Below are positions 391-61,597 of a DNA stretch of 64,000 bases, piece by piece. The notes under the pieces are model-generated. The model worked only from the letters and a program-made list of their open reading frames with translations. It searched no databases and had not been told where the DNA came from. The DNA lies in contig SHVB01000008.1 in the NCBI GenBank assembly GCA_009694375.1, positions 45,743-109,742 on the forward strand, given 5' to 3'. Each line of letters begins with the position of its first letter. Position 1 is the first letter of the stretch. The DNA comes from Acidimicrobiia bacterium. Its GTDB lineage: Bacteria > Actinomycetota > Acidimicrobiia > Acidimicrobiales > VFJN01. The position numbers were made by a program, and so were the translations under genes.

Positions 391-1980
391 ATGGGGCATG
401 GTTTGACGATGCGTATTTCTTCTCGACGACTGGGTGAGTTCCTGGTGGCTCGGCGCGTGCTCTCTCGCGATGCCCTCGACGAACTTCTGGCCCGTGAAGC
501 CCGCGACGGCGTCCACCTGAGCAATCTTTTGATGATCGATCAGCTCGTGAGTGAGCAGGATCTCATGGCAGCGGTGGCTAGTGAACTTGGGGTGCCTTAC
601 GTCGACCTCGTTGAGAGGTCGATCCTGCCCGATGTATGGGGGCTCGTGCCCGAAGCATTTGCCCGACGCCATCTTGCCGTGGTGCTGGAACGGCGCACTG
701 CCGGCCTCCTCGTGGCGATGGAAGACCCCGGCGACGAGCCGACCGTGGCCGCGCTCGCCGAGTTGTTGGGGGTGCCCATTCTCCCGGCGGTGGCGGTGCG
801 GGCCGACCTACTGGCGCTCGTCGAGCAGATCTATGGCGTGGGTCAGTCTGATGGATCAGGATCCGAGGAGGCGGGCGCGCCCACGTTTGCCACCGCCGCG
901 CCGGGGTCATCCGGTTTGCAACTCAACGATTTATTGGATCAAGTGCTGGCCACCGGTGGCTCTGATCTCCACCTGACGGTGGGTGCGCCACCGGCGGTGC
1001 GGGTGCAAGGCGAACTCTGCCGGATGGCGAACATGGCGCCGCTCAATGGCTCCGAGGTGCGGCGTTTGGTGCTCGGCATGTTCACGGAAAAGCAACGCGA
1101 ACGCTTCCTGGCCGAGGGCGAGCTGGCCACCTCCCATGCCATCCCCGGACGCGGCCGGTTCCGCGTATCGGCGTTCGTTCAACGCGACTCGGTGGGGGCG
1201 GTCCTGCGTTTGGTGCCAGCGGAGATTCCTTCCGCCGAGGACCTCGGTCTGCCCGCCGACGTGATCCGATGGGCCGACCACACCAAAGGGCTGGTGCTGG
1301 TATGCGGGCCGCACGGCTCCGGAACAAGCACCACCATGGCCTCCTTGGTCGACCGCATCAACCGGGCCCGCGCCTGCCACATCCTCACGGTGGAACAGCC
1401 GATCGAGTTTCTTCACAAACACCGGGCCGCCATCGTGAATCAGCGCGAGGTGGGGGAAGACACCGCTACGTTCGAATCGGGTCTGCGCTATTCGCTGCGG
1501 CAGGATCCCGATGTTCTGGTGGTGGGGGAGATCCCCGATGTCGCCACCGTGCGCCATGTGCTCGCCGCCGCCGAGACGGGCCATCTCGTGATGGCCACGC
1601 TCCGCACCCTCGACACGGTCAAGACGCTGGAGCGCTTGGTTGACATCTTTCCGACCGATCAGCAGGTCCAGGTACGGCACCAGTTGGCTACGACCCTGCG
1701 CGGTATCGTGGTGCAGCAGTTGGTGCCGGCGATTGACGGAGGGTTCGCCCTGGCCACTGAAGTCATGAAGCCCACCGCAGAGGTGGTCCGTTGTATCCGT
1801 GAGGGCGACCATGGCAGCCTGGTGAAGGCCATGCTCGGTGGGCCAGCAATGGGAATGGGGACGATGGATCAGTCGTTGGCCCAGTTGGTGATCGAGCGCC
1901 AGGTAACGGTGAGCGACGCCGCCGACCGGGCCGTGGACCCCAACGAACTGCGCTACCTCACCTCCGGTCTCGATGCCTGA
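391..1980 (+). CDS. PilT-family type IV pilus ATPase homolog with N-terminal T2SSE_N/MshEN-like domain; catalytic motifs degenerate
   Basis: PilT signatures are present: DLHLTVGAPPAVRVQGEL, GRGRFRVSAF, NQREVGEDT, TGHLVMATL, MGTMDQSLAQLV. The N-terminal ~150 aa resembles GSPII_E_N. The Walker A reads GPHGSGTSTT. The start could alternatively be ATG 409. Confidence 0.8.
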   Translation: MGHGLTMRISSRRLGEFLVARRVLSRDALDELLAREARDGVHLSNLLMIDQLVSEQDLMAAVASELGVPYVDLVERSILPDVWGLVPEAFARRHLAVVLERRTAGLLVAMEDPGDEPTVAALAELLGVPILPAVAVRADLLALVEQIYGVGQSDGSGSEEAGAPTFATAAPGSSGLQLNDLLDQVLATGGSDLHLTVGAPPAVRVQGELCRMANMAPLNGSEVRRLVLGMFTEKQRERFLAEGELATSHAIPGRGRFRVSAFVQRDSVGAVLRLVPAEIPSAEDLGLPADVIRWADHTKGLVLVCGPHGSGTSTTMASLVDRINRARACHILTVEQPIEFLHKHRAAIVNQREVGEDTATFESGLRYSLRQDPDVLVVGEIPDVATVRHVLAAAETGHLVMATLRTLDTVKTLERLVDIFPTDQQVQVRHQLATTLRGIVVQQLVPAIDGGFALATEVMKPTAEVVRCIREGDHGSLVKAMLGGPAMGMGTMDQSLAQLVIERQVTVSDAADRAVDPNELRYLTSGLDA

Positions 1981-3929: not shown

Positions 3930-4985
3930 ATGCTTTCGCCCCTCGACGACCTGCCGATCCACCAAGTCGCTCACCCGGTTCGCCAACCGGGCACCAGCGA
4001 CCGCAACTTCTACGACCGCTATTACTTCAACTGCCACCCATGTTCCGACGAAATGTTCCTCGTCATGGGCATGGGCCAGTATCCCAATCTCGGGGTGCAG
4101 GATGCCTTCGCGGTGGTGCGGCGCGGCGATGAGCATCGGGTGGTGCGAGCCTCGCGTGAACTAGGTCGCCACCGCGGTGATACGTCGGTCGGCCCGTTCG
4201 CAGTCGAAGTGGTGGAGGGGCTCAAGACGCTGCGTTGCACCCTGGATGCCCCAGAACATGGCCTGTCCTACGACCTCACCTGGGAGGGCTATGTCCCGGC
4301 CTTTCAGGAACCCCCGCACGTAGATCGAAACGCCAATGGCCGCGCGTTCCTGGATGCCTGCCGCTTCGCCCAACTTGGTTCATGGAGTGGGTGGATCGAC
4401 GTGGCCGGCGATCGCTTGGAGGTGACCCCGGACCATTGGTGGGGTAGTCGCGACCGCTCCTGGGGTATCCGGCCGGTGGGTGAACCCGAGGCCCCCGGCA
4501 ATCTGACGAGCCATCCCGCCGGGGCCTTTCGCTGGCTCTACGCCCCCTTCCGGATGCCCGACCATGCCTTGGTGTTCATTTGCCAGGAGCGCGAAAACGG
4601 CAGCCGGGTGCTGGAGGAAGCCGTACGGCTCTGGCCCGACGGTCGCGTCGATTTCCTGGGTCGGGCGGAGCACGATCTGCGCTGGAATGCCAACGGTCCG
4701 GGCCTGTTCGGGCTGGTCGAGGGAGGCACCCTTCGCCTGGGGGACCTCGTGGTGCAGGTGGAGCCGGTGCTCCCCGTGCACATTGGAGTGGGGACGGGCT
4801 ACGGCTTCGACGGTGACGGTTGGAAACACGGCGCGTATCAGGGGGACCTGGAGGTTCAGGGCAAGGTCTACGACCTCGCGTCGGAGACGGGTCGCGCCGC
4901 CATGTTCGGCATCGTGGATTCGGTGTCCAAGTTCACCATCGGCAACCAGACCGGCTGGGGCCTGTTCGAGCACCTCTACGTGTAG
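3930..4985 (+). CDS. conserved hypothetical protein (function unknown)
   Basis: Long ORF with normal coding composition. SD AAGGAG precedes ATG 3930. The track start at 3795 overlaps the upstream gene. No catalytic motif recognised. Confidence 0.6.
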   Translation: MLSPLDDLPIHQVAHPVRQPGTSDRNFYDRYYFNCHPCSDEMFLVMGMGQYPNLGVQDAFAVVRRGDEHRVVRASRELGRHRGDTSVGPFAVEVVEGLKTLRCTLDAPEHGLSYDLTWEGYVPAFQEPPHVDRNANGRAFLDACRFAQLGSWSGWIDVAGDRLEVTPDHWWGSRDRSWGIRPVGEPEAPGNLTSHPAGAFRWLYAPFRMPDHALVFICQERENGSRVLEEAVRLWPDGRVDFLGRAEHDLRWNANGPGLFGLVEGGTLRLGDLVVQVEPVLPVHIGVGTGYGFDGDGWKHGAYQGDLEVQGKVYDLASETGRAAMFGIVDSVSKFTIGNQTGWGLFEHLYV

Positions 4986-4986
4986 C

Positions 4987-5020
4987 GGCCCCCGTTGGAG
5001 GCGATGGTCAAGCGGGGGCC
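4987..5020. terminator. GC-rich hairpin between convergent genes (possible U-tract-less terminator)
   Basis: GGCCCCCG (4987-4994) pairs perfectly with CGGGGGCC (5013-5020) around an 18-nt loop. It lies between the stop at 4985 (+) and the stop at 5008 (-). No U-tract. Confidence 0.3.
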
Positions 5021-6066
5021 AGGCACACGGTCCAGGTGACCGGCACCAGTGATGACCGTTCTGCTCCCATCGAGCCAAAGACCACCACCTCATCGCCGCG
5101 CACCACCAGATTGGTTGCGGTGTAATACGCATCGGTGCTGGGGAGAATCTTGACGACGCGGAACTGGCCGTCGGCGGTGAGCTCTAACACGCCGGCGGTG
5201 AAGCCAACGTCGGCGCCGTCGTCATTCCGCCGGATGCGATCCACCGCCAGGAGTACACGCCCATCGGGGCGGGTGGCCAATCCCCACAGGCGGACATCGG
5301 CGAGGTCGGTGTTGTTGATGATCTCGGTGACTGGTTCATCGTCGGTTGGCCAGTCGGCCAGGAACGGGCGGATGGGGTTACCAACCACAAACCCCACTGC
5401 GCTCGCCCCGGCAGCGGTGGCCTCCAAATCCATCAACTTATTGTCGTCGGGTGCCGACGGTGGGGAAAGAGGCACCTTGGCCGTCGTCCAGTTCTGGCCA
5501 TCCGACGAGGTGACTAGCTCAGCGGTCCTGCCGTTGGCCGCTCCGCTCAGGGCATACCAACGGCCGCCGTCATGGGCGAGCGCGCTCAGGGTGGTGTCGC
5601 CGGTATGACCATCCAACCGCCAGGGAGTTTCGGTCCAGGTGACGAGGTCGCTCGATCGCCACATCCGGGCCGGGGCATCGGTCGTGGAGTTGTCTCTGGT
5701 GGCGACCCACACCTCACCATTGGCCTCGGTCATGGCCTGCGGTTCATCCTTCGGCCCGCCCGGGCGCGCCTGGCTACTCCAGGTGGTTTCCCCGACGGGG
5801 CGAACCCACAGCACATCTCCGATGGCCACCAGTTGCCCATCGGGACGAGCCAGGGCATCGGTGAGGGTGCCTTGATCTGGCGTATCGGGCAGAAGCACCG
5901 GTTCTTCGGTGGTTGCCTCACAGGCGATAGCCTGAAGCCCCGCGGTGGTGGGCGGGGCCTTCTTGGCTGTCGGCGGGTCGCTCTGGGTGCATGACGCCGC
6001 CGTCAAGGCGGCTACCACCAGCAGCAACGCTCCCCGTCCTGGGTATGGGCGGCGATGCGGTTCCAT
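5008..6066 (-). CDS. putative secreted lipoprotein with Asp-box-like repeats (beta-propeller-like)
   Basis: N-terminal signal LLLVVAALTAASC with a lipobox-like AASC. Repeated SSDLVTW / SSDGQNW motifs resemble BNR/Asp-boxes. Confidence 0.6.
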   Translation of the reverse strand: MEPHRRPYPGRGALLLVVAALTAASCTQSDPPTAKKAPPTTAGLQAIACEATTEEPVLLPDTPDQGTLTDALARPDGQLVAIGDVLWVRPVGETTWSSQARPGGPKDEPQAMTEANGEVWVATRDNSTTDAPARMWRSSDLVTWTETPWRLDGHTGDTTLSALAHDGGRWYALSGAANGRTAELVTSSDGQNWTTAKVPLSPPSAPDDNKLMDLEATAAGASAVGFVVGNPIRPFLADWPTDDEPVTEIINNTDLADVRLWGLATRPDGRVLLAVDRIRRNDDGADVGFTAGVLELTADGQFRVVKILPSTDAYYTATNLVVRGDEVVVFGSMGAERSSLVPVTWTVCLAPA

Positions 6067-22978: not shown

Positions 22979-24171
22979 CCCGCCAGTGGACCTTCACCTC
23001 GGAGTCTGTGACCGAGGGCCACCCCGACAAGATGGCCGACCAGATCTCCGACTCGATTCTGGACGCCATCCTGGCGGAGGACCCGATGGCCCGCGTGGCC
23101 TGCGAGACGATGGTCACCACCGGATTGGCGATCGTGGCTGGTGAGATCACCACCACGGCCTACGTCGAGATCCCCTCCATCGTGCGCAACACGATCAAGA
23201 GCATCGGCTACGACCGTGAGTCGGTGGGTTACGACGGCAACACCTGTGGCGTGATCACTTCGATCGACCCGCAGTCGCCCGACATCGCCCAGGGCGTAGA
23301 CACCGCCATGGAGACCCGTACCGGCGTATCGGGCGAGGATCTTCTCAACAGTCAGGGCGCTGGCGATCAGGGCATGATGTTCGGGTATGCGGTGAAAGAG
23401 ACCGAAGACCTCATGCCGCTGCCGATTTGGCTGGCCCATCGCCTCGCCGAACGGCTCGCCGACGTGCGGAAGTCGGGTGTGCTCCCGTACCTGCGCCCCG
23501 ACGGCAAGACGCAGGTCACGGTGGACTACGAGGGCAACACGCCCACACGCCTCACCACCGTGCTCATCTCCACCCAGCACCAGCCCGGTATCGATGCCGA
23601 GACGCTCATCAAGCCCGATCTCATCGAACACGTGATCACCCCGCTGCTGCCTACCAACATCGACACCTCCGACTTCCGGGTGCTGGTGAACCCCACCGGC
23701 AACTTCGAGTTGGGTGGCCCCTACGCCGACTGTGGCCTCACTGGTCGCAAGATCATCGTGGACACCTACGGCGGAGCCGCTCGCCACGGCGGTGGAGCCT
23801 TCTCCGGCAAGGACCCGTCCAAGGTGGACCGCTCCGCCGCCTACGCGGCCCGCTGGGTGGCGAAGAACGTGGTGGCCGCCGGGGCGGCTGATCGCTGCGA
23901 GGTGCAGGTGGCCTACGCCATTGGTGTCGCCCAGCCCGTATCGATCCTGGTGGAGACCTTCGGGACCGAGACGGTGGAGGAGGCCAAGATCAGCCAGGCC
24001 GTACGCGATGTGTTCGACCTGCGACCGGCCGCCATCATCCGCGATCTCGATCTGCGCCGGCCGATCTACCAAAAGACCGCCGCCTACGGGCACTTCGGGC
24101 GACCGGACAAGGATTTCACCTGGGAGCAGACCACCCGGGTCGACGACCTGAAATCCGCCCTCGGCTTGTAG
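22975..24171 (+). CDS. metK: S-adenosylmethionine synthetase
   Basis: [44 protein letters not shown]. Confidence 0.97.
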
Positions 24172-25904
24172 TGCCGTCGCCGCTCGTCGTTCGCGTCCTT
24201 CCGGACGTGCCGGCGATCGACAAGACCTTCGACTACCTGGTCCCGGACGCCGTTCGGGACCAGGTGCGCGTGGGCGACATGGTGCGCATCGCGTTGCATG
24301 GTCGCCGAGTGGGGGGCTGGGTCATGGCGGTGGACGTGGAGCCACCGGCCGGAGTGGCGCTACACCCGTTGGTGAAACGCAGTGGTCTGGGTCCCACCGC
24401 TGATCTGTTGGAACTGGCGGAGTGGGGGGCGTGGCGGTGGGCCGGACGTCCGGCATCCTTTCTGAAAACGGCCAGTCCGGAGCGAATGGTGGCCGTACTA
24501 CCGGACCCGCCTCCCTCGGCCCGGCCTGCCCCGAGCCATGAACTCCTGGCGCGGGCAGTAGCGGGCCCCCGGTCGGTGTTACGTCTGCCTCCGGCCACGA
24601 ATCTCGTGCACGTAGCCCTGGCGGCGGCGGGATGCGGCAACGCGCTGGTGCTCTGCCCCAGCCAGGCGTTGGTGCGGCGGGTGGCCCATGGCCTCACCCG
24701 CGCCGGGGTGGCGGTGGCGGTGTACCCACAGGACTGGGCCCGGGGGGCGGCGGGCGCCACCGTGGTGGGCACGCGAGGAGCGGCGTGGGCCCCGGTGGGG
24801 GATCTGGCGGCGGTGGTGGTGCTCGACGAGCACGATGAGGGACATCAGCAGGAGCAGGCCCCCACCTGGCACGCCCGGGATGTGGCGGTGGAACGAGCCG
24901 CTCGGGCGGGAGTGCCCTGTGTCCTCACCAGTGCCTGCCCCAGCCTGGAGGCATTGGCGTGGGGCACCCTGCTGCCCGCTGATCGCCGACGAGAGCGGGC
25001 CGGATGGCCAGTGGTGGAGGTGGTGGATCGACGCCGAGGCGATCCGCGTCGCGAGGGCCTCTATTCCGAAGCCTTGGTGCGACTACTGCGCTCGGACCAG
25101 CGGGTGCTGTGCGTACTGAATCGCACCGGTCGGGCTCGCCTGCTGGCCTGCACGGCCTGTGGGGAACTGGCCCGCTGTGATGCCTGTGCGGCGGCGGTGG
25201 AGCAACCGGAGAGTGAACTGCACTGCCGACGATGTGGCGCCGCCCGACCACCGATCTGCTTGTCCTGTGGGGCGGCCCGCTTCCGGAACGCCCGGGTGGG
25301 GGTAACCCGGGTGCGGGAGGAACTTGAGGCACTAGTGGGGGAGCCAGTCACCGAATTGACCGCTCGCTCCGAGCCCGGGGCTTCGGCCACGAGGGTGGTG
25401 GTGGGTACCGAGGCGGTGCTCCAGCGCATCGATCGCGCTGACGTCGTGGCCTTCCTTGACCTAGACCAGGAACTGTTGGCGCCGCGCTACCGGGCCAGCG
25501 AGCAGGCCCTGGCGCTGCTCGCCCGGGCGGCCCGGGTGGTGGCGGCGTCGGGACCGGCGGGTGATCGGGCGGCGGGGCGGCTTCTCCTCCAAACCCGCAG
25601 CCCCGACCACGAAGTGGTCCAGGCCGTCGTGCGCGCCGACGTCAGTGGCGTGAGCAACGCCGAGCGCGGACGGCGGGAGCTTCTCCGCTTTCCCCCCTTC
25701 ACGGCCCTGGCTGAGGTATCCGGAGCGGCGGCAGCGGCTTATGTGGAGGCGTTGGGCACACCTGAGGGCGTCGAAGTCGTCGAGAGCGCGGACGGCCATT
25801 GGTTGGTGCGCGCCCCGGATCAGGCGTCGCTCAGCAACGCCCTTACCTCCGTCCGTCGGCCCCCGGGTCGGCTCCGCATCGAGGTCGACCCGCTCCGGGT
25901 CTAG
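24171..25904 (+). CDS. priA: primosomal protein N' (PriA) homolog lacking a canonical Walker A
   Basis: N-terminal 3'-DNA-binding-domain pattern (FDYLVPD, GDMVRIALHGRRVGGWV). DEHD box. Cys-rich zinc region CTACGELARCDAC...HCRRCG...CLSCG. Confidence 0.8.
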   Translation: MPSPLVVRVLPDVPAIDKTFDYLVPDAVRDQVRVGDMVRIALHGRRVGGWVMAVDVEPPAGVALHPLVKRSGLGPTADLLELAEWGAWRWAGRPASFLKTASPERMVAVLPDPPPSARPAPSHELLARAVAGPRSVLRLPPATNLVHVALAAAGCGNALVLCPSQALVRRVAHGLTRAGVAVAVYPQDWARGAAGATVVGTRGAAWAPVGDLAAVVVLDEHDEGHQQEQAPTWHARDVAVERAARAGVPCVLTSACPSLEALAWGTLLPADRRRERAGWPVVEVVDRRRGDPRREGLYSEALVRLLRSDQRVLCVLNRTGRARLLACTACGELARCDACAAAVEQPESELHCRRCGAARPPICLSCGAARFRNARVGVTRVREELEALVGEPVTELTARSEPGASATRVVVGTEAVLQRIDRADVVAFLDLDQELLAPRYRASEQALALLARAARVVAASGPAGDRAAGRLLLQTRSPDHEVVQAVVRADVSGVSNAERGRRELLRFPPFTALAEVSGAAAAAYVEALGTPEGVEVVESADGHWLVRAPDQASLSNALTSVRRPPGRLRIEVDPLRV

Positions 25905-32443: not shown

Positions 32444-32467
32444 GTAGGGTGAAGGCACAATTGAGCA

Positions 32468-32594
32468 AACCCTCGCGGGGTTGGGTGAAACTCCCGACCG
32501 GCGGTGTAGCCCGCGAACCTCCCCACCACCAGTGGGGCGGCCGATCCGGTGTGAATCCGGAGCCGACGGTGAAAGTCCGGATGGGAGCGAGGAC
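32468..32594 (+). ncRNA. FMN riboswitch (RFN element)
   Basis: Conserved RFN blocks: GGGGUUGGGUGAAACUCCCGACCGGCGGU..AGCCCGCGA and GAUCCGGUGUGAAUCCGGAGCCGACGGUGAAAGUCCGGAUGGGAG. The P1 stem pairs CCUCGC (32471-76) with GCGAGG (32587-92). It lies upstream of ribD. Confidence 0.9.
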
Positions 32595-32663
32595 GCCCGG
32601 TGGTCGACCTTCGGTCGGCGGCCGTCGTCACCCCGCGCGTGGCCGAGCCAGCCCGGAGATGAC

Positions 32664-33674
32664 ATGACCACCGCATCCGATACCGAGCGCATGACCCGAG
32701 CCCTCGTGTTGGCGGCCGCCGTGCGGGCCGCCGCCCCCCCGAATCCCTGGGTGGGTTGCGTGATCGAAACGCCCACCGGCGACGTGTTCGAGGGGGCGAC
32801 CCACGCCGTCGGGGGTCCGCACGCCGAGGCGGTAGCCCTGGCGACGGCGACCGGCCACGATCTCGCCGGCGCCACGGCCTGGGTCACCCTCGAGCCCTGC
32901 TCTCATGCCGGACGGACGCCGCCGTGTGTGGATGCCCTCATCGCCGCCGGCGTGGCCCGGGTGGTGATCGGCCTGGAAGATCCCGATACCCGAGTGCAGG
33001 GTCGGGGGATTGAGCGGCTGATGGCGGCGGGCATCGATGTGATCGTGGGGGTGCTCGCCGACGAGGGCGCCCGCCTGCTGGCGCCTTACCTCCATCACCG
33101 CCGGACCGGTCGTCCCTACGTGGTCCTCAAGACCGCAACGTCCCTCGACGGCCGTACCGCCGCCCCCGACGGGTCCAGCCAGTGGATCACTGGGCCCGCG
33201 GCCCGGGCGGATGGCCACGGCCTGCGCGCCGAGAGCGACAGCATTCTGGTGGGCGCCGGTACCGTGCGGATCGACGACCCCAGCCTGACCGTGCGCGACG
33301 CCCCCGCCCCGCGCGGCGACCCGGTGCGGGTGGTGCTCGGCGAGGCACCCGCCACCGCCCGGGTGCACCCGTGTCTTGAACGCGGCGGTGATCTCGGAGC
33401 GGTGCTCGACGAACTCGGCGCCCTGGGCCATCTCCAACTCCTCGTCGAGGGTGGTCCCACCGTGGCTCACGCCTTTCATGCCGCCGGGCTCGTGAACCGC
33501 TACGTCGTCTATGTCGCCCCCTGCCTCTTGGGGGGCGACGATGCGCCCGGCGTTTTCAGCGGCCCCGGTGCCCCGCGCCTGGACACCATCACCCGGGGTC
33601 GGATTCAGTCGGTGCGACGGCTCGGCGAAGATCTTCGTATCGATCTGGTACCCCACCCCTCGGAGGCCCCCTGA
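32664..33674 (+). CDS. ribD: bifunctional riboflavin biosynthesis deaminase/reductase RibD
   Basis: Deaminase zinc motif HAEAVAL...TLEPCSHAGRTPPC plus a reductase domain. GGAG SD lies 6 nt before ATG 32664. The track start at 32481 runs through the riboswitch. Confidence 0.92.
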   Translation: MTTASDTERMTRALVLAAAVRAAAPPNPWVGCVIETPTGDVFEGATHAVGGPHAEAVALATATGHDLAGATAWVTLEPCSHAGRTPPCVDALIAAGVARVVIGLEDPDTRVQGRGIERLMAAGIDVIVGVLADEGARLLAPYLHHRRTGRPYVVLKTATSLDGRTAAPDGSSQWITGPAARADGHGLRAESDSILVGAGTVRIDDPSLTVRDAPAPRGDPVRVVLGEAPATARVHPCLERGGDLGAVLDELGALGHLQLLVEGGPTVAHAFHAAGLVNRYVVYVAPCLLGGDDAPGVFSGPGAPRLDTITRGRIQSVRRLGEDLRIDLVPHPSEAP

Positions 33675-34249
33675 TGTTCACCGGAATCATCGAGGAACTC
33701 GGTACGGTGCTGTCCCGCCAAGGCCCGCGGCTTCGCATCGGAGCCCACACCGTGCTCGAGGACGTGACCATGGGTGCCTCCATCGCCGTGAACGGCACCT
33801 GCCTCACCGTGGTGGGGTGGTCGGTGGAGGAGGGGTGGTGGGAGGCCGATGTGGTGGAAGAGTCCTACGCCCGCACCGCCCTCGGAGCGCTTGACGCGGG
33901 CCACCGGGTGAATCTGGAGCGACCGGTGCGCATGAGCGACCGTCTCGGAGGACACCTGGTCCAGGGGCACGTAGACGGGGTGGGCACCATCGTGGTGGGT
34001 GCGCCGGATCTACGGATTCGGTGTGCCACGGGCCTTCTGCGCTACATCGTGGAGAAGGGTTCCATCACCATCGACGGCATCAGCCTCACCGTGGTGGTTC
34101 CCACCCCCGAAGGCTTTACCGTGGCGGTCATTCCGCACACCGCCGCCGTCACCACCCTCGGTCTGAAAGGCCCCGGCGATCCCGTGAATCTTGAAGTCGA
34201 CATCACGGCCAAGTACGTGGAACGGCTTCTCTCCTGGAAGGATGACTGA
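33674..34249 (+). CDS. ribE: riboflavin synthase (alpha chain)
   Basis: MFTGIIEELG start and the internal duplication typical of riboflavin synthase. Confidence 0.93.
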   Translation: MFTGIIEELGTVLSRQGPRLRIGAHTVLEDVTMGASIAVNGTCLTVVGWSVEEGWWEADVVEESYARTALGALDAGHRVNLERPVRMSDRLGGHLVQGHVDGVGTIVVGAPDLRIRCATGLLRYIVEKGSITIDGISLTVVVPTPEGFTVAVIPHTAAVTTLGLKGPGDPVNLEVDITAKYVERLLSWKDD

Positions 34250-34250
34250 C

Positions 34251-35471
34251 ATGGCCTTTGCTCGGATCGAAGATGCGGTGGAGGCCTATGCCCGGGGAGA
34301 GATCCTCGTGGTGGTGGACGACGAGGATCGCGAGAACGAAGGCGACCTGATCCAAGCGGCGGAGTTCGCCACCGCCGAGAGCATCGCCTTTTTCCTCCAT
34401 CACACCTCGGGCTACCTCTGTGCTCCCATCACCGCCGAACGGGCCGCCGAACTCGACCTCCCGCCGATGGTGGCGGAAAATACCGAGAGTCAGCGCACCG
34501 CGTTCCTCGTGACGGTGGACTACCGCCACGGCACTTCCACCGGCATTTCCGCCCACGATCGCTGCGCCACCGTACGGGCCCTATGCGACCCGACCATCCG
34601 TCCGGGCGATCTGGCCCGACCGGGCCACATCAACCCGCTCATGGCCCGCGAGGGCGGGGTGCTCAAACGCGCTGGCCACACCGAGGCCACCGTGGACCTG
34701 TGCCGAATGGCGGGGTTGTACCCAGCCGGCTTGCTCTGCGAGATCGTGGACTCGGACAAACAAGACATGGCGCGCGTTCCCGAACTCGAACGCTTTGCCG
34801 AGCAGCACGGTCTGCTCATGATCTCCATCGCCGATCTCGTGCGTTACCGACGCCAGAACGAGAAACTGGTGCGCCGCATCGGCGAGGCCCGTATTCCCAC
34901 GCAGTGGGGCGATTTCACCTGCTACGCCTACGAGTCGCTCCTCGACGGCGAACAGCACGTGGCCATGGTGAAGGGAACGGTGGCGGGGGAAGCCAACGTG
35001 CTGGTTCGGGTGCACAGTGAATGTCTCACCGGCGACGTGTTCGGTTCGCTGCGCTGCGACTGCGGCGTCCAACTCGACTCGGCCATGGCAATCATGGCCG
35101 AGGAAGGCCATGGCGTGGTGGTCTATCTGCGTGGCCATGAAGGGCGCGGCATCGGCATTGGTCACAAGATCCGGGCGTACGGGCTCCAAGAGAAAGGCCG
35201 GGACACGGTGGACGCCAATCTGGATCTGGGGCTTCCCGAGGACAGCCGTGAGTACGGCATCGGAGCACAGATTCTTGTGGACTTGGGCGTAACCACCATG
35301 CGGATCATCACCAACAACCCGAGCAAATACGGCGGCCTCGAAGGCTTCGGTCTGGAGATCACCGAGCGGGTGCCCTCGATCGTGTCGGTGAACCCGGAGA
35401 ACTTGGCCTACCTGCGCACCAAACGCGAGCGGATGGGTCATCTCCTCGAGGGTCTGGACGACGTGTTGTGA
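34251..35471 (+). CDS. ribBA: bifunctional 3,4-dihydroxy-2-butanone-4-phosphate synthase / GTP cyclohydrolase II
   Basis: DDEDRENEGDL (RibB) and VRVHSECLTGDVFGSLRCDCG (RibA). Start taken at ATG 34251, right after the ribE stop. Confidence 0.93.
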   Translation: MAFARIEDAVEAYARGEILVVVDDEDRENEGDLIQAAEFATAESIAFFLHHTSGYLCAPITAERAAELDLPPMVAENTESQRTAFLVTVDYRHGTSTGISAHDRCATVRALCDPTIRPGDLARPGHINPLMAREGGVLKRAGHTEATVDLCRMAGLYPAGLLCEIVDSDKQDMARVPELERFAEQHGLLMISIADLVRYRRQNEKLVRRIGEARIPTQWGDFTCYAYESLLDGEQHVAMVKGTVAGEANVLVRVHSECLTGDVFGSLRCDCGVQLDSAMAIMAEEGHGVVVYLRGHEGRGIGIGHKIRAYGLQEKGRDTVDANLDLGLPEDSREYGIGAQILVDLGVTTMRIITNNPSKYGGLEGFGLEITERVPSIVSVNPENLAYLRTKRERMGHLLEGLDDVL

Positions 35472-56552: not shown

Positions 56553-58084
<1,532 letters not shown>

Positions 58085-58342
58085 AGACATCCCCTCATCA
58101 CGAGGGGTACTCCCGAGTTGATCACTCGCTATTCGGTCCTCCATGTCAGGCGACGAAATTGAGTTTCGGCTCTTTCGCACACCGGTGGCAGGTCCCTACG
58201 TCTTCTCTTCTGTTTTGAGGGAGTTTCTCCCTCGAGCTCTGCCAGGCACCGCCGGCCCTTCGGGTCGGTGTCCTGGCGTCTACGACCCGTTGGTCCGGAA
58301 GCTCCTTGAGAATTGCATAGCGAGCACGAGCATCTTTGTTCT

Positions 58343-61402
<3,060 letters not shown>

Positions 61403-61478
61403 GACAATAATGTTCGTGCTCGCTATGGAGTTCCTCAAGGAGCCGCGCCGTCTTTCGGCTGCGCTGCCTTGACAACAG

Positions 61479-61597
<119 letters not shown>

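Follow-up and report, generated by a model that had tools for sequence, protein, structure and literature searches.

A catalytically degenerate PilT homolog in the Microthrix clade, probably retained in a non-motor role after loss of its type IV pilus locus

Introduction

Why is a PilT homolog kept when its catalytic residues have been replaced and most of the pilus genes of its locus are gone? This question is raised by an open reading frame (ORF) at positions 391-1980 of a 64 kb stretch of contig SHVB01000008.1 from an Acidimicrobiia bacterium (hereafter the window; coordinates are those of the window and lie on the plus strand unless stated otherwise). The 529-residue product, named PilT* here, joins an MshEN-like domain to a PilT-type core consisting of an N2D domain and a C-terminal domain (CTD), and the catalytic motifs of this core are degenerate. 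The best genome match to the window was Candidatus Microthrix parvicella RN1, at 97% identity on the protein level and, over 12 kb, about 94.4% on the DNA level. Microthrix is of importance in wastewater plants, where it takes part in bulking and foaming. A literature search turned up no account of a degenerate PilT clade, an MshEN-PilT fusion or pili in Microthrix, nor any paper characterizing the active MshEN-PilTs of Acidimicrobiia. In this study, we compared PilT* with its relatives, its structural homologs and its genomic neighbourhood, and we propose that it is probably a former retraction ATPase that was kept in a non-motor role when its pilus locus was dismantled.

Results

Catalytic positions of PilT* are replaced throughout its clade

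The family sample consisted of the 120 protein clusters closest to PilT* (63-100% identity), all 120 of which are MshEN+T2SSE proteins and whose taxon-bearing names are all Acidimicrobiia, Acidimicrobiales, Microthrixaceae or Actinomycetota. Two further sets were used for comparison, namely 137 canonical relatives and a set of active orthologs made up of 118 of the 120 nearest relatives of an outgroup fragment, P0190. The ORF and the motifs quoted from it in the initial annotation were all present. The Walker A remnant GPHGSGTSTT (1306-1335, residues 306-315) carries threonine in place of the lysine at residue 312 (codon ACA, 1324-1326) and histidine in place of threonine at residue 308. The Asp box VEQPIEF (1390-1410, residues 334-340; TVEQPIEF from residue 333) has glutamine in place of aspartate at residue 336 and keeps the Mg-contacting E339, and the end of Walker B, GEIPD (1525-1539, residues 379-383), keeps the catalytic E380 and has P382 at the position of the GEMRD arginine. 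In the His box TGHLVMATLRT (1576-1608, with TLRT at residues 403-406), T396 is kept and the second histidine is replaced by R405. The description of all catalytic motifs as degenerate thus holds for the lysine, the aspartate, the arginine and the second histidine, but it went too far for E380, E335, E339, R256, R258 and the first His-box histidine H398, which are kept together with NQREVG and the P-loop glycines.

These replacements were not confined to the window. The Walker A lysine, present in 100% of the 137 canonical relatives, was found in 0/120 of the closest clusters, which have threonine (88), isoleucine (17), leucine (9) or methionine (6) at this position; H308, P382 and R405 each occur in 118/120, and C305 occurs in 120/120. 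The loss of the lysine and the gain of R405 are therefore conserved among orthologs, whereas the change at the Asp-box position is so only in part (glutamine in 65, glutamate in 37 and aspartate in 13). Sequencing error is rejected because the substitutions recur in 120 independent clusters, as the initial annotation had expected, and the locus is not an isolated variant, since the degeneration is fixed across them.

The changes extend beyond the four motifs. Nine core positions with a conservation of at least 85% among the canonical relatives are replaced in the clade (D246, N260, T305, T308, K312, D336, A364, R382 and H405), which adds D246A, N260S, T305C and A364G to the substitutions first recognized, along with F452 in place of the equivalent of Geobacter R278, and 63 positions at least 90% conserved in the active orthologs are replaced in the PilT* clade, among them the Walker A lysine, the His-box histidine, the GEMRD arginine and the AIRNLIRE motif. 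New invariant residues have appeared as well, with W83, A261, C305, V441, P461 and D473 in 120/120 clusters and K479 in 118/120. AIRNLIRE is the PilT signature required for retraction in vivo. At this position (1774-1803), PilT* reads TAEVVRCIRE against TPAVRNLIRE or TPAIRNLIRE in the 118 active orthologs, and in the clade both this block and the following helix are rewritten. Some members also lack the Walker B glutamate (TGSLPD, AGALPD), and a more divergent and more degenerate lineage, P0270, reads GQSRSGRSTT, VSALPD and SMSV.

Similar losses were seen outside this clade. In tandem PilT-PilT proteins from outside Acidimicrobiia (P0170, P0171 and P0186), the second module reads LPD instead of MRD and lacks the His-box histidine, and an unrelated MshEN-PilT (P0252, L023:10001-11644), located among non-pilus genes, reads GPTASGTTTI, VDRLPD and ALPT. 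The replacement of this arginine by proline together with loss of the histidine therefore recurs independently.

The PilT fold is predicted to be intact

The start of the gene is ambiguous between ATG 391 and ATG 409 (M7). Most orthologs begin at the equivalent of M7, and the six residues that a start at ATG 391 would add are unconserved among orthologs; ATG 409 may be the true start. Four segments follow. The MshEN/GSPII-like N-terminal domain occupies 421-843 (residues 11-151), with a match to PF05157 and a predicted local distance difference test (pLDDT) of about 90. A variable, disordered linker lies at 844-918 (residues 152-176), with a mean column conservation of 0.35 compared with 0.80-0.86 in the rest of PilT* and a pLDDT of 31-41. 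The N2D domain spans 919-1215 (residues 177-275), in which R256 and R258 are kept and D246A and N260S are found, and the C-terminal RecA-like ATPase-fold domain spans 1216-1977 (residues 276-529).

In the Pfam scan, MshEN (PF05157) scored 52.6 bits over residues 66-151 (cutoff 23.1) and T2SSE (PF00437) scored 119 bits. The PilT homology of the C-terminal part that had been proposed from the sequence was confirmed by the NCBIfam model pilT_fam (TIGR01420), which covered residues 178-519 at 384.5 bits and passed its cutoff of 319.1; the active orthologs score about 474-480 bits with this model and members of the degenerate clade 369-408. The closest solved structure to PilT* was PilT of Geobacter metallireducens (PilT4; E = 3.5e-93), and PDB 5htl, the N-domain of Vibrio cholerae MshE, matched residues 11-122 (E = 7.8e-10). 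An AlphaFold2 model built from 76 family sequences had a mean pLDDT of 83.9, and in Foldseek it matched PilT4 (6OJX/6OKV) with a target-normalised TM-score of 0.94 and a root-mean-square deviation of 1.6-1.9 Å. A PilT fold, with N2D and RecA-like CTD, is thus confidently predicted for PilT*.

The changed residues fall in the network that couples hydrolysis to ring movement

PilT* was mapped by alignment onto G. metallireducens PilT, where the residue number of PilT* equals the Geobacter number plus 175 for residues 213-450. The pairs are H308/T133, T312/K137, Q336/D161, P382/R207, T396/T221, R405/H230 and F452/R278. In Geobacter PilT, whether an interface between packing units is closed or open is defined by the contacts H230-T221, T221-T133 and R195-D161 (McCallum et al., 2019, PMC6858323), a proton relay has been proposed to run from E204 through H230 and T221 to T133, and R278 is situated next to the nucleotide site; the functions of D161 and E164 are taken from the same source (PMC6858323). 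Since the equivalents of T133, D161 and H230 are all changed in PilT*, the substitutions hit one network, which couples hydrolysis to opening and closing of the ring. The ring contacts S248, R256, E339, E353, G355, R370, E395, T396, R415, L444, P446 and G451 are kept in PilT* (Geobacter S73, R81, E164, E178, G180, R195, E220, T221, R240, L269, P271 and G277, respectively). We infer that the ring architecture has probably been retained and the motor cycle lost.

PilT* evolves under purifying selection

The ratio of nonsynonymous to synonymous substitution rates (dN/dS) was computed between the window and Ca. M. parvicella RN1. It was 0.10 for the whole of PilT*, 0.04 for its MshEN part and 0.09 for its core, and for the neighbouring genes it was 0.09 (aroC), 0.06 (aroK), 0.17 (aroB) and 0.32 (PilD), the last being more relaxed than its neighbours. 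Pseudogene decay is rejected because of the value of 0.10. Within the clade, the identity of PilT* tracks that of AroE, MltG and RuvX, and comparisons across the split between active and degenerate copies give a relatively lower identity than comparisons inside the active clade. This pattern fits a burst of change after which constraint was restored, and on the evidence of the substitutions the change is neofunctionalisation rather than decay. The best reading is that PilT* would be a selected pseudo-ATPase, in which the catalytic residues were lost clade-wide, the fold was kept and purifying selection acts; the initial annotation had likewise suggested a non-hydrolysing pseudo-ATPase, and both the clade-wide motif loss and the dN/dS of PilT* argue for it.

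The locus is a remnant of an aro-embedded type IVa pilus cluster

On contigs with an identical PilT*, the gene order is alaS-ruvX-mltG-aroE-PATAN(DUF4388)-PilT*-prepilin peptidase-APH-two unknown genes-aroC-aroK-aroB-aroQ-pepP-efp-nusB, and the reduced order aroE-PATAN-PilT*-PilD-(APH)-aroC recurs in about 15 loci of the Microthrix clade. In the search of representatives, the whole degenerate clade formed a single 50%-identity cluster, which was followed by a gap in score from 687 to 476 bits. The outgroup fragment P0190 combines the N-terminal motif of the clade with a canonical Walker A. The 118 active orthologs recovered with this fragment are Acidimicrobiia MshEN-PilTs of about 530-540 residues, they are fully canonical (GPTGSGKST, EDPIEF, GEMRD, TLHT and AIRNLIRE), and their N-terminal motif is as in PilT* (RLGEFLVERKVLSRD...E). 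The initial annotation had taken the N-domain to be foreign to canonical PilT proteins, which is wrong for this class. The MshEN fusion predates the degeneration, because the active orthologs carry the same fusion.

In five other Acidimicrobiia loci (L025, L026, L027, L030 and L031), a type IVa pilus cluster lies between aroE and aroC in the order aroE-(PATAN)-PilB-PilT-PilC-pilin-PilD-PilM/N-PilO...aroC, with PilD, PilM/N and PilO seen only where the contig and gene calls reach. These intact clusters sit inside a housekeeping aroE...aroC operon, and MshEN is found on both their PilB and their PilT. PilT* shares 48-50% full-length identity with the active PilTs and about 30% with the PilBs, and an origin of PilT* from PilB was rejected on these values. 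By position and identity, comparative analysis shows PilT* to be the positional ortholog of the active retraction ATPase, an MshEN-PilT, that belongs to the aro-embedded type IVa cluster.

The other pilus components were not recovered. When PilB, PilC, pilin, PilMN and PilO of the intact clusters were searched by tblastn against the window and 13 loci of the clade, the only matches were to PilT* and PilD, and no PilB, PilC, pilin or PilM/N/O was found within 10 kb on either side in the 13 related loci. No second T2SSE ATPase was detected in the window by phmmer against six-frame ORFs, and no pilin class III signal peptides were detected in the window or in the Acidimicrobiia loci. Among the five intact and about 16 reduced loci, no intermediate was found, either as an intact cluster with a degenerate PilT or as a reduced locus with an active one. 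In the P0270 lineage, aroE is followed by an uncharacterised gene of 288 amino acids and then by PilT*, and PilD is not adjacent. The series from intact loci through the three-gene remnant to the P0270 lineage suggests stepwise dismantling of the pilus locus.

The MshEN-like domain keeps its layout and has lost ligand-contacting residues

The motif pair of the N-terminal domain (427-585) has an exact 24-5-24 spacing, consisting of motif I RLGEFLVARRVLSRDALDELLARE (residues 13-36), the spacer ARDGV (residues 37-41) and motif II HLSNLLMIDQLVSEQDLMAAVASE (residues 42-65). Motif I is close to the consensus. Both motifs end in glutamate, not glutamine, and motif II also lacks Gly3 and Gly10. Against the relaxed MshEN pattern (Wang et al., 2016, PMC5013675), motif I deviates at positions 10 (R) and 24 (E), and motif II does so at positions 1 (H), 3 (S), 10 (Q) and 24 (E), so that neither fits the pattern. 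The near fit to the cyclic di-GMP (c-di-GMP)-binding motif that had been reported for the first helix is therefore borne out by the Pfam domain and by the layout, but not by the pattern, nor by the NCBIfam model c-di-GMP_motif (NF053729), with which PilT* scored 29.3, below the cutoff of 38. With this model the intact-cluster PilBs, whose motif is canonical, score 57-62, the active PilT orthologs a borderline 32-40 and the degenerate clade 22-34 (minimum 21.6, maximum 33.9).

The two changes in the first helix, glycine to arginine and glutamine to glutamate, had been listed as traits of this copy, but they turned out to be ancestral, as PilT* and the active orthologs have in common both a basic residue at position 10 of motif I and the glutamate that ends it. 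It is the decay of motif II that is specific to the degenerate clade, with Gly10 replaced by E, Q, H or D and Gln24 replaced by glutamate in 117/120. In MshEN domains that bind the ligand, the terminal glutamine of each motif hydrogen-bonds phosphate and the ribose 2'-OH, and the backbone of Gly3 hydrogen-bonds guanine; PilF GSPII-A, in which one motif is good and the other degenerate, is a domain that fails to bind c-di-GMP (PMC11731258). Canonical c-di-GMP binding by PilT* appears doubtful from these residues. The dN/dS of the domain is very low, and the domain therefore does something.

A PATAN gene and a remodelled prepilin peptidase flank PilT*

The 3' end of a PATAN gene (its last 119 codons) lies at 5-364, directly upstream of PilT* and separated from it by 26 nt. 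The full protein of 342 amino acids was obtained from contig L001 (L001:2414-3442), which is identical to the window over the shared 2.4 kb, and it matched PF14332 at 3.4e-15. It contains PATAN/DUF4388, a winged helix-turn-helix (wHTH)-like segment (weak MarR_2 match) and a long Pro/Ala-rich disordered region that holds the short conserved islands ERFVPLxLPG, SYDP and AFPGL, and it has no receiver domain. Its C terminus carries an invariant peptide, GRGMLVKFLSSVKS (320-361), with the consensus RG(L/M)L(L/V)KFLSSVKS in 10 orthologs; the C-terminal peptide RGLLLKFLSSVKS is also found in the PATAN protein of the intact cluster L026, as NRGLLLKFLNSVRS. This peptide may be an amphipathic docking or membrane-targeting helix. 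The adjacency of PATAN and PilT* was the same in 13/13 reduced loci, and PATAN is also upstream of PilT* in L028/L029 and the parent contig (Pfam PatA_N). A narrow, clade-specific hidden Markov model found no PATAN near the unrelated PilT loci L014-L023. In Synechocystis PixE, the PATAN domain is the output module, which binds residues 1-366 of PilB1 as well as PilC's N-terminal domain (bioRxiv 10.1101/2021.06.11.447907).

Downstream of PilT* lies a homolog of the prepilin peptidase of the A24 family (PilD*, 2011-2781), in which both catalytic Asp motifs are kept. It lacks all four cysteines of the CxxC...CxxC zinc motif seen in the PilDs of intact clusters (L026:13587-14357 and L027:13975-14745) and has a clade-specific insertion of about 10 residues after GWLGW; the cysteine loss and the insertion were found together in 12/12 copies from reduced loci. 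Two conserved genes without a family match lie between APH and aroC, one at 3930-4985, which has the same position in related loci, and one on the minus strand at 5008-6066 with a lipoprotein-like start (...LTAASC).

Other features of the window

The remainder of the window consists of housekeeping genes. A PriA-like ORF of 577 amino acids (24171-25901) matches only the 3'-DNA-binding domain of PriA; a DEHD box remains, and the ORF gave no helicase-domain Pfam match even at E ≤ 0.1 and has no visible GxGKT Walker A. From its sequence, it may be another degenerate ATPase. An FMN (flavin mononucleotide) riboswitch (32467-32596, 104.8 bits) lies upstream of ribD-ribE-ribBA (32664-35471), and a minus-strand ORF that overlaps ribD (32628-33656) matches no family and probably does not represent a gene. 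The window also contains a complete rRNA operon at 56553-61597, with 16S at 56553-58078, 23S at 58342-61403 and 5S at 61481-61597.

Discussion

Considering the above results, the explanation that we favour as a whole, with a rough probability of 0.65, is that PilT* is a degenerate PilT kept after loss of the pilus locus for a role other than that of a motor. In the proposed course of events, the cluster of the Microthrix clade would have lost PilB, PilC, pilin and PilM/N/O, with PATAN, PilT* and a remodelled PilD remaining. PilT* itself would have lost the residues for ATP hydrolysis and those coupling hydrolysis to the open and closed states of the subunits, as well as AIRNLIRE, and would have kept its fold and most ring contacts while gaining new invariant residues. 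The product would form a static, PilT-like ring that does no motor work. Nucleotide binding may persist, since the ring subunit retains the P-loop backbone, the Arg fingers and the Mg-contacting glutamate. PilT* would then act as a docking or signalling partner of the upstream PATAN-wHTH protein, probably through its MshEN-like domain, for which the binding of cyanobacterial PATAN domains to the N-terminal region of PilB1 serves as a model; a physical partnership of PATAN and PilT* is our best guess, by analogy with that system. PilT* could act on a residual type IV filament system encoded at another site in the genome, or on a process that does not involve pili.

Several points weigh against this explanation. 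Pilus-related and pilus-independent roles are not separable from the loci alone, and the intact catalytic aspartates of PilD* hint that prepilin-like substrates still exist. The partnership with PATAN is weakened because the PATAN gene was not called in the intact clusters L025 and L027, and because the Synechocystis PATAN regulators bound neither PilT1 nor PilT2 in the yeast two-hybrid screen of the same study (bioRxiv 10.1101/2021.06.11.447907). In addition, the charges of K312 and R382 are lost while H308 and R405 are gained, and PilT* retains the catalytic glutamate, the Arg fingers and the P-loop glycines, so that a residual or unorthodox ATPase is possible.

A more specific form of the same idea is that a retraction motor turned non-catalytic outlived its pilus and, with its PATAN-wHTH partner, came to serve a pilus-independent function in the filamentous Microthrix. 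We put this forward tentatively and with clearly less conviction than the non-motor role itself; the candidate functions are gene regulation and an envelope or filament-growth process.

It is rather unlikely, in our judgement, that PilT* is a regulator sensing c-di-GMP or nucleotide that acts on a distant type IV pilus or a Tad/Com filament, competing with or poisoning motors at the PilC/PilM platform. Such a role would be in keeping with the adjoining prepilin peptidase and its intact catalytic Asp motifs, with the control of pilus motors by the PATAN family in cyanobacteria, and with the very strong selection (dN/dS 0.04) on the 24-5-24 layout, and since most ring contacts are kept, PilT* could dock where PilT docks. 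However, neither the window nor the 10 kb around 13 related loci holds PilB, PilC, pilin, PilM/N/O or a second T2SSE, the AIRNLIRE signature is gone, and the P0270 lineage has retained PilT* with no PilD next to it. The sensing part fares no better, as the c-di-GMP_motif score of PilT* and those of the other clade members (22-34) fall below the cutoff, both motifs end in glutamate where glutamine contacts the ligand, motif II is without Gly3 and Gly10, and the precedent of PilF GSPII-A is one of no binding. The suggestion in the initial annotation of a regulator of pilus dynamics thus found no local support, with PilB, PilC, pilin and PilM/N/O absent from the window and about 15 reduced loci.

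Less probable still is that PilT* remains an ATPase with a rewired site, in which H308 and R405 replace the phosphate contacts of K312 and R382, as in kinases that relocate the catalytic lysine. Two positive charges were lost and two were gained, the new ones being found in 118/120 clusters each, and E380 is kept in most members along with E339, R256, R258, NQREVG and the P-loop glycines. Against this, the former lysine position varies among T, I, L and M, so that no phosphate-contacting role is left there, some members lose the Walker B glutamate too (including P0270, with VSALPD), the nine core positions conserved in the canonical relatives changed together, and the pilT_fam score falls from about 475-480 in active orthologs to 369-408. 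A reading of PilT* as without function, be it a pseudogene in decay or an artefact of assembly or sequencing, is effectively refuted, since, although the locus lost most of its pilus genes and the catalytic residues are gone, the full-length ORF is intact in at least 120 independent protein clusters that stem from many different assemblies and sources, its dN/dS is like that of housekeeping neighbours, many replaced positions carry new invariant residues and the AlphaFold2 model is confident.

The non-motor role that we favour can be set against known systems. PilT* shares with PilT4 (6OJX/6OKV) and Pseudomonas aeruginosa PilT (3JVV) the N2D+CTD fold, about 45% identity, the Arg fingers, the Walker B glutamate and most packing-unit contacts, whereas it is without the Walker A lysine, the second histidine, the GEMRD arginine, the Asp-box aspartate and AIRNLIRE, and has the MshEN-like domain in addition. 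Unlike the genes of PilT retraction ATPases, its gene was not beside PilB, PilC or PilM in the loci examined. The active MshEN-PilTs of Acidimicrobiia (P0350/L026 and P0278/L027) have the same length, domain order, N-terminal motif (RLGEFLVxR(K/R)VLSRD...E) and position after aroE, but they differ from PilT* in having canonical motifs and in being flanked by PilB, PilC, pilin, PilD and PilMNO. With V. cholerae MshE and Thermus thermophilus PilF GSPII-B/C, PilT* shares the Pfam match and the predicted combination of a helical motif-pair subdomain with an alpha/beta subdomain; compared with MshEN domains that are c-di-GMP receptors, its motif II starts with histidine and has neither Gly3 nor Gly10, and the closest resemblance is to PilF GSPII-A.

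In the cyanobacterial PixE/PixG/LsiR-PilB1 systems, PATAN is likewise genetically coupled to a pilus-type ATPase with an MshEN-type N-region, although the Microthrix PATAN protein has no receiver domain and its neighbour is a catalytically degenerate PilT rather than an active PilB. FimX, with its degenerate GGDEF-EAL, and PilB as an exopolysaccharide signal are precedents for roles in binding or conformation without turnover (PMC5595344, PMC6957770). Both act in cells with a working pilus, and neither is a PilT homolog that has itself lost catalysis.

Database entries call PilT* either "PilT/PilU family type 4a pilus ATPase" or "twitching motility protein PilT". Classing it among the retraction ATPases is not warranted, as its catalytic motifs, the AIRNLIRE signature and its locus association all fail to support that function, and these names would wrongly suggest twitching motility in Microthrix. 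The clade amounts to a natural dissection of PilT, in which the residues for hydrolysis and relay have been removed and the ring contacts and N-domain are under strong selection. PilT* could therefore show roles of the PilT ring beyond pulling pili, and the ligands of PATAN and of non-binding MshEN-type domains. If its role is indeed pilus-independent, PilT* would be the first PilT-family pseudoenzyme with a selected role of its own.

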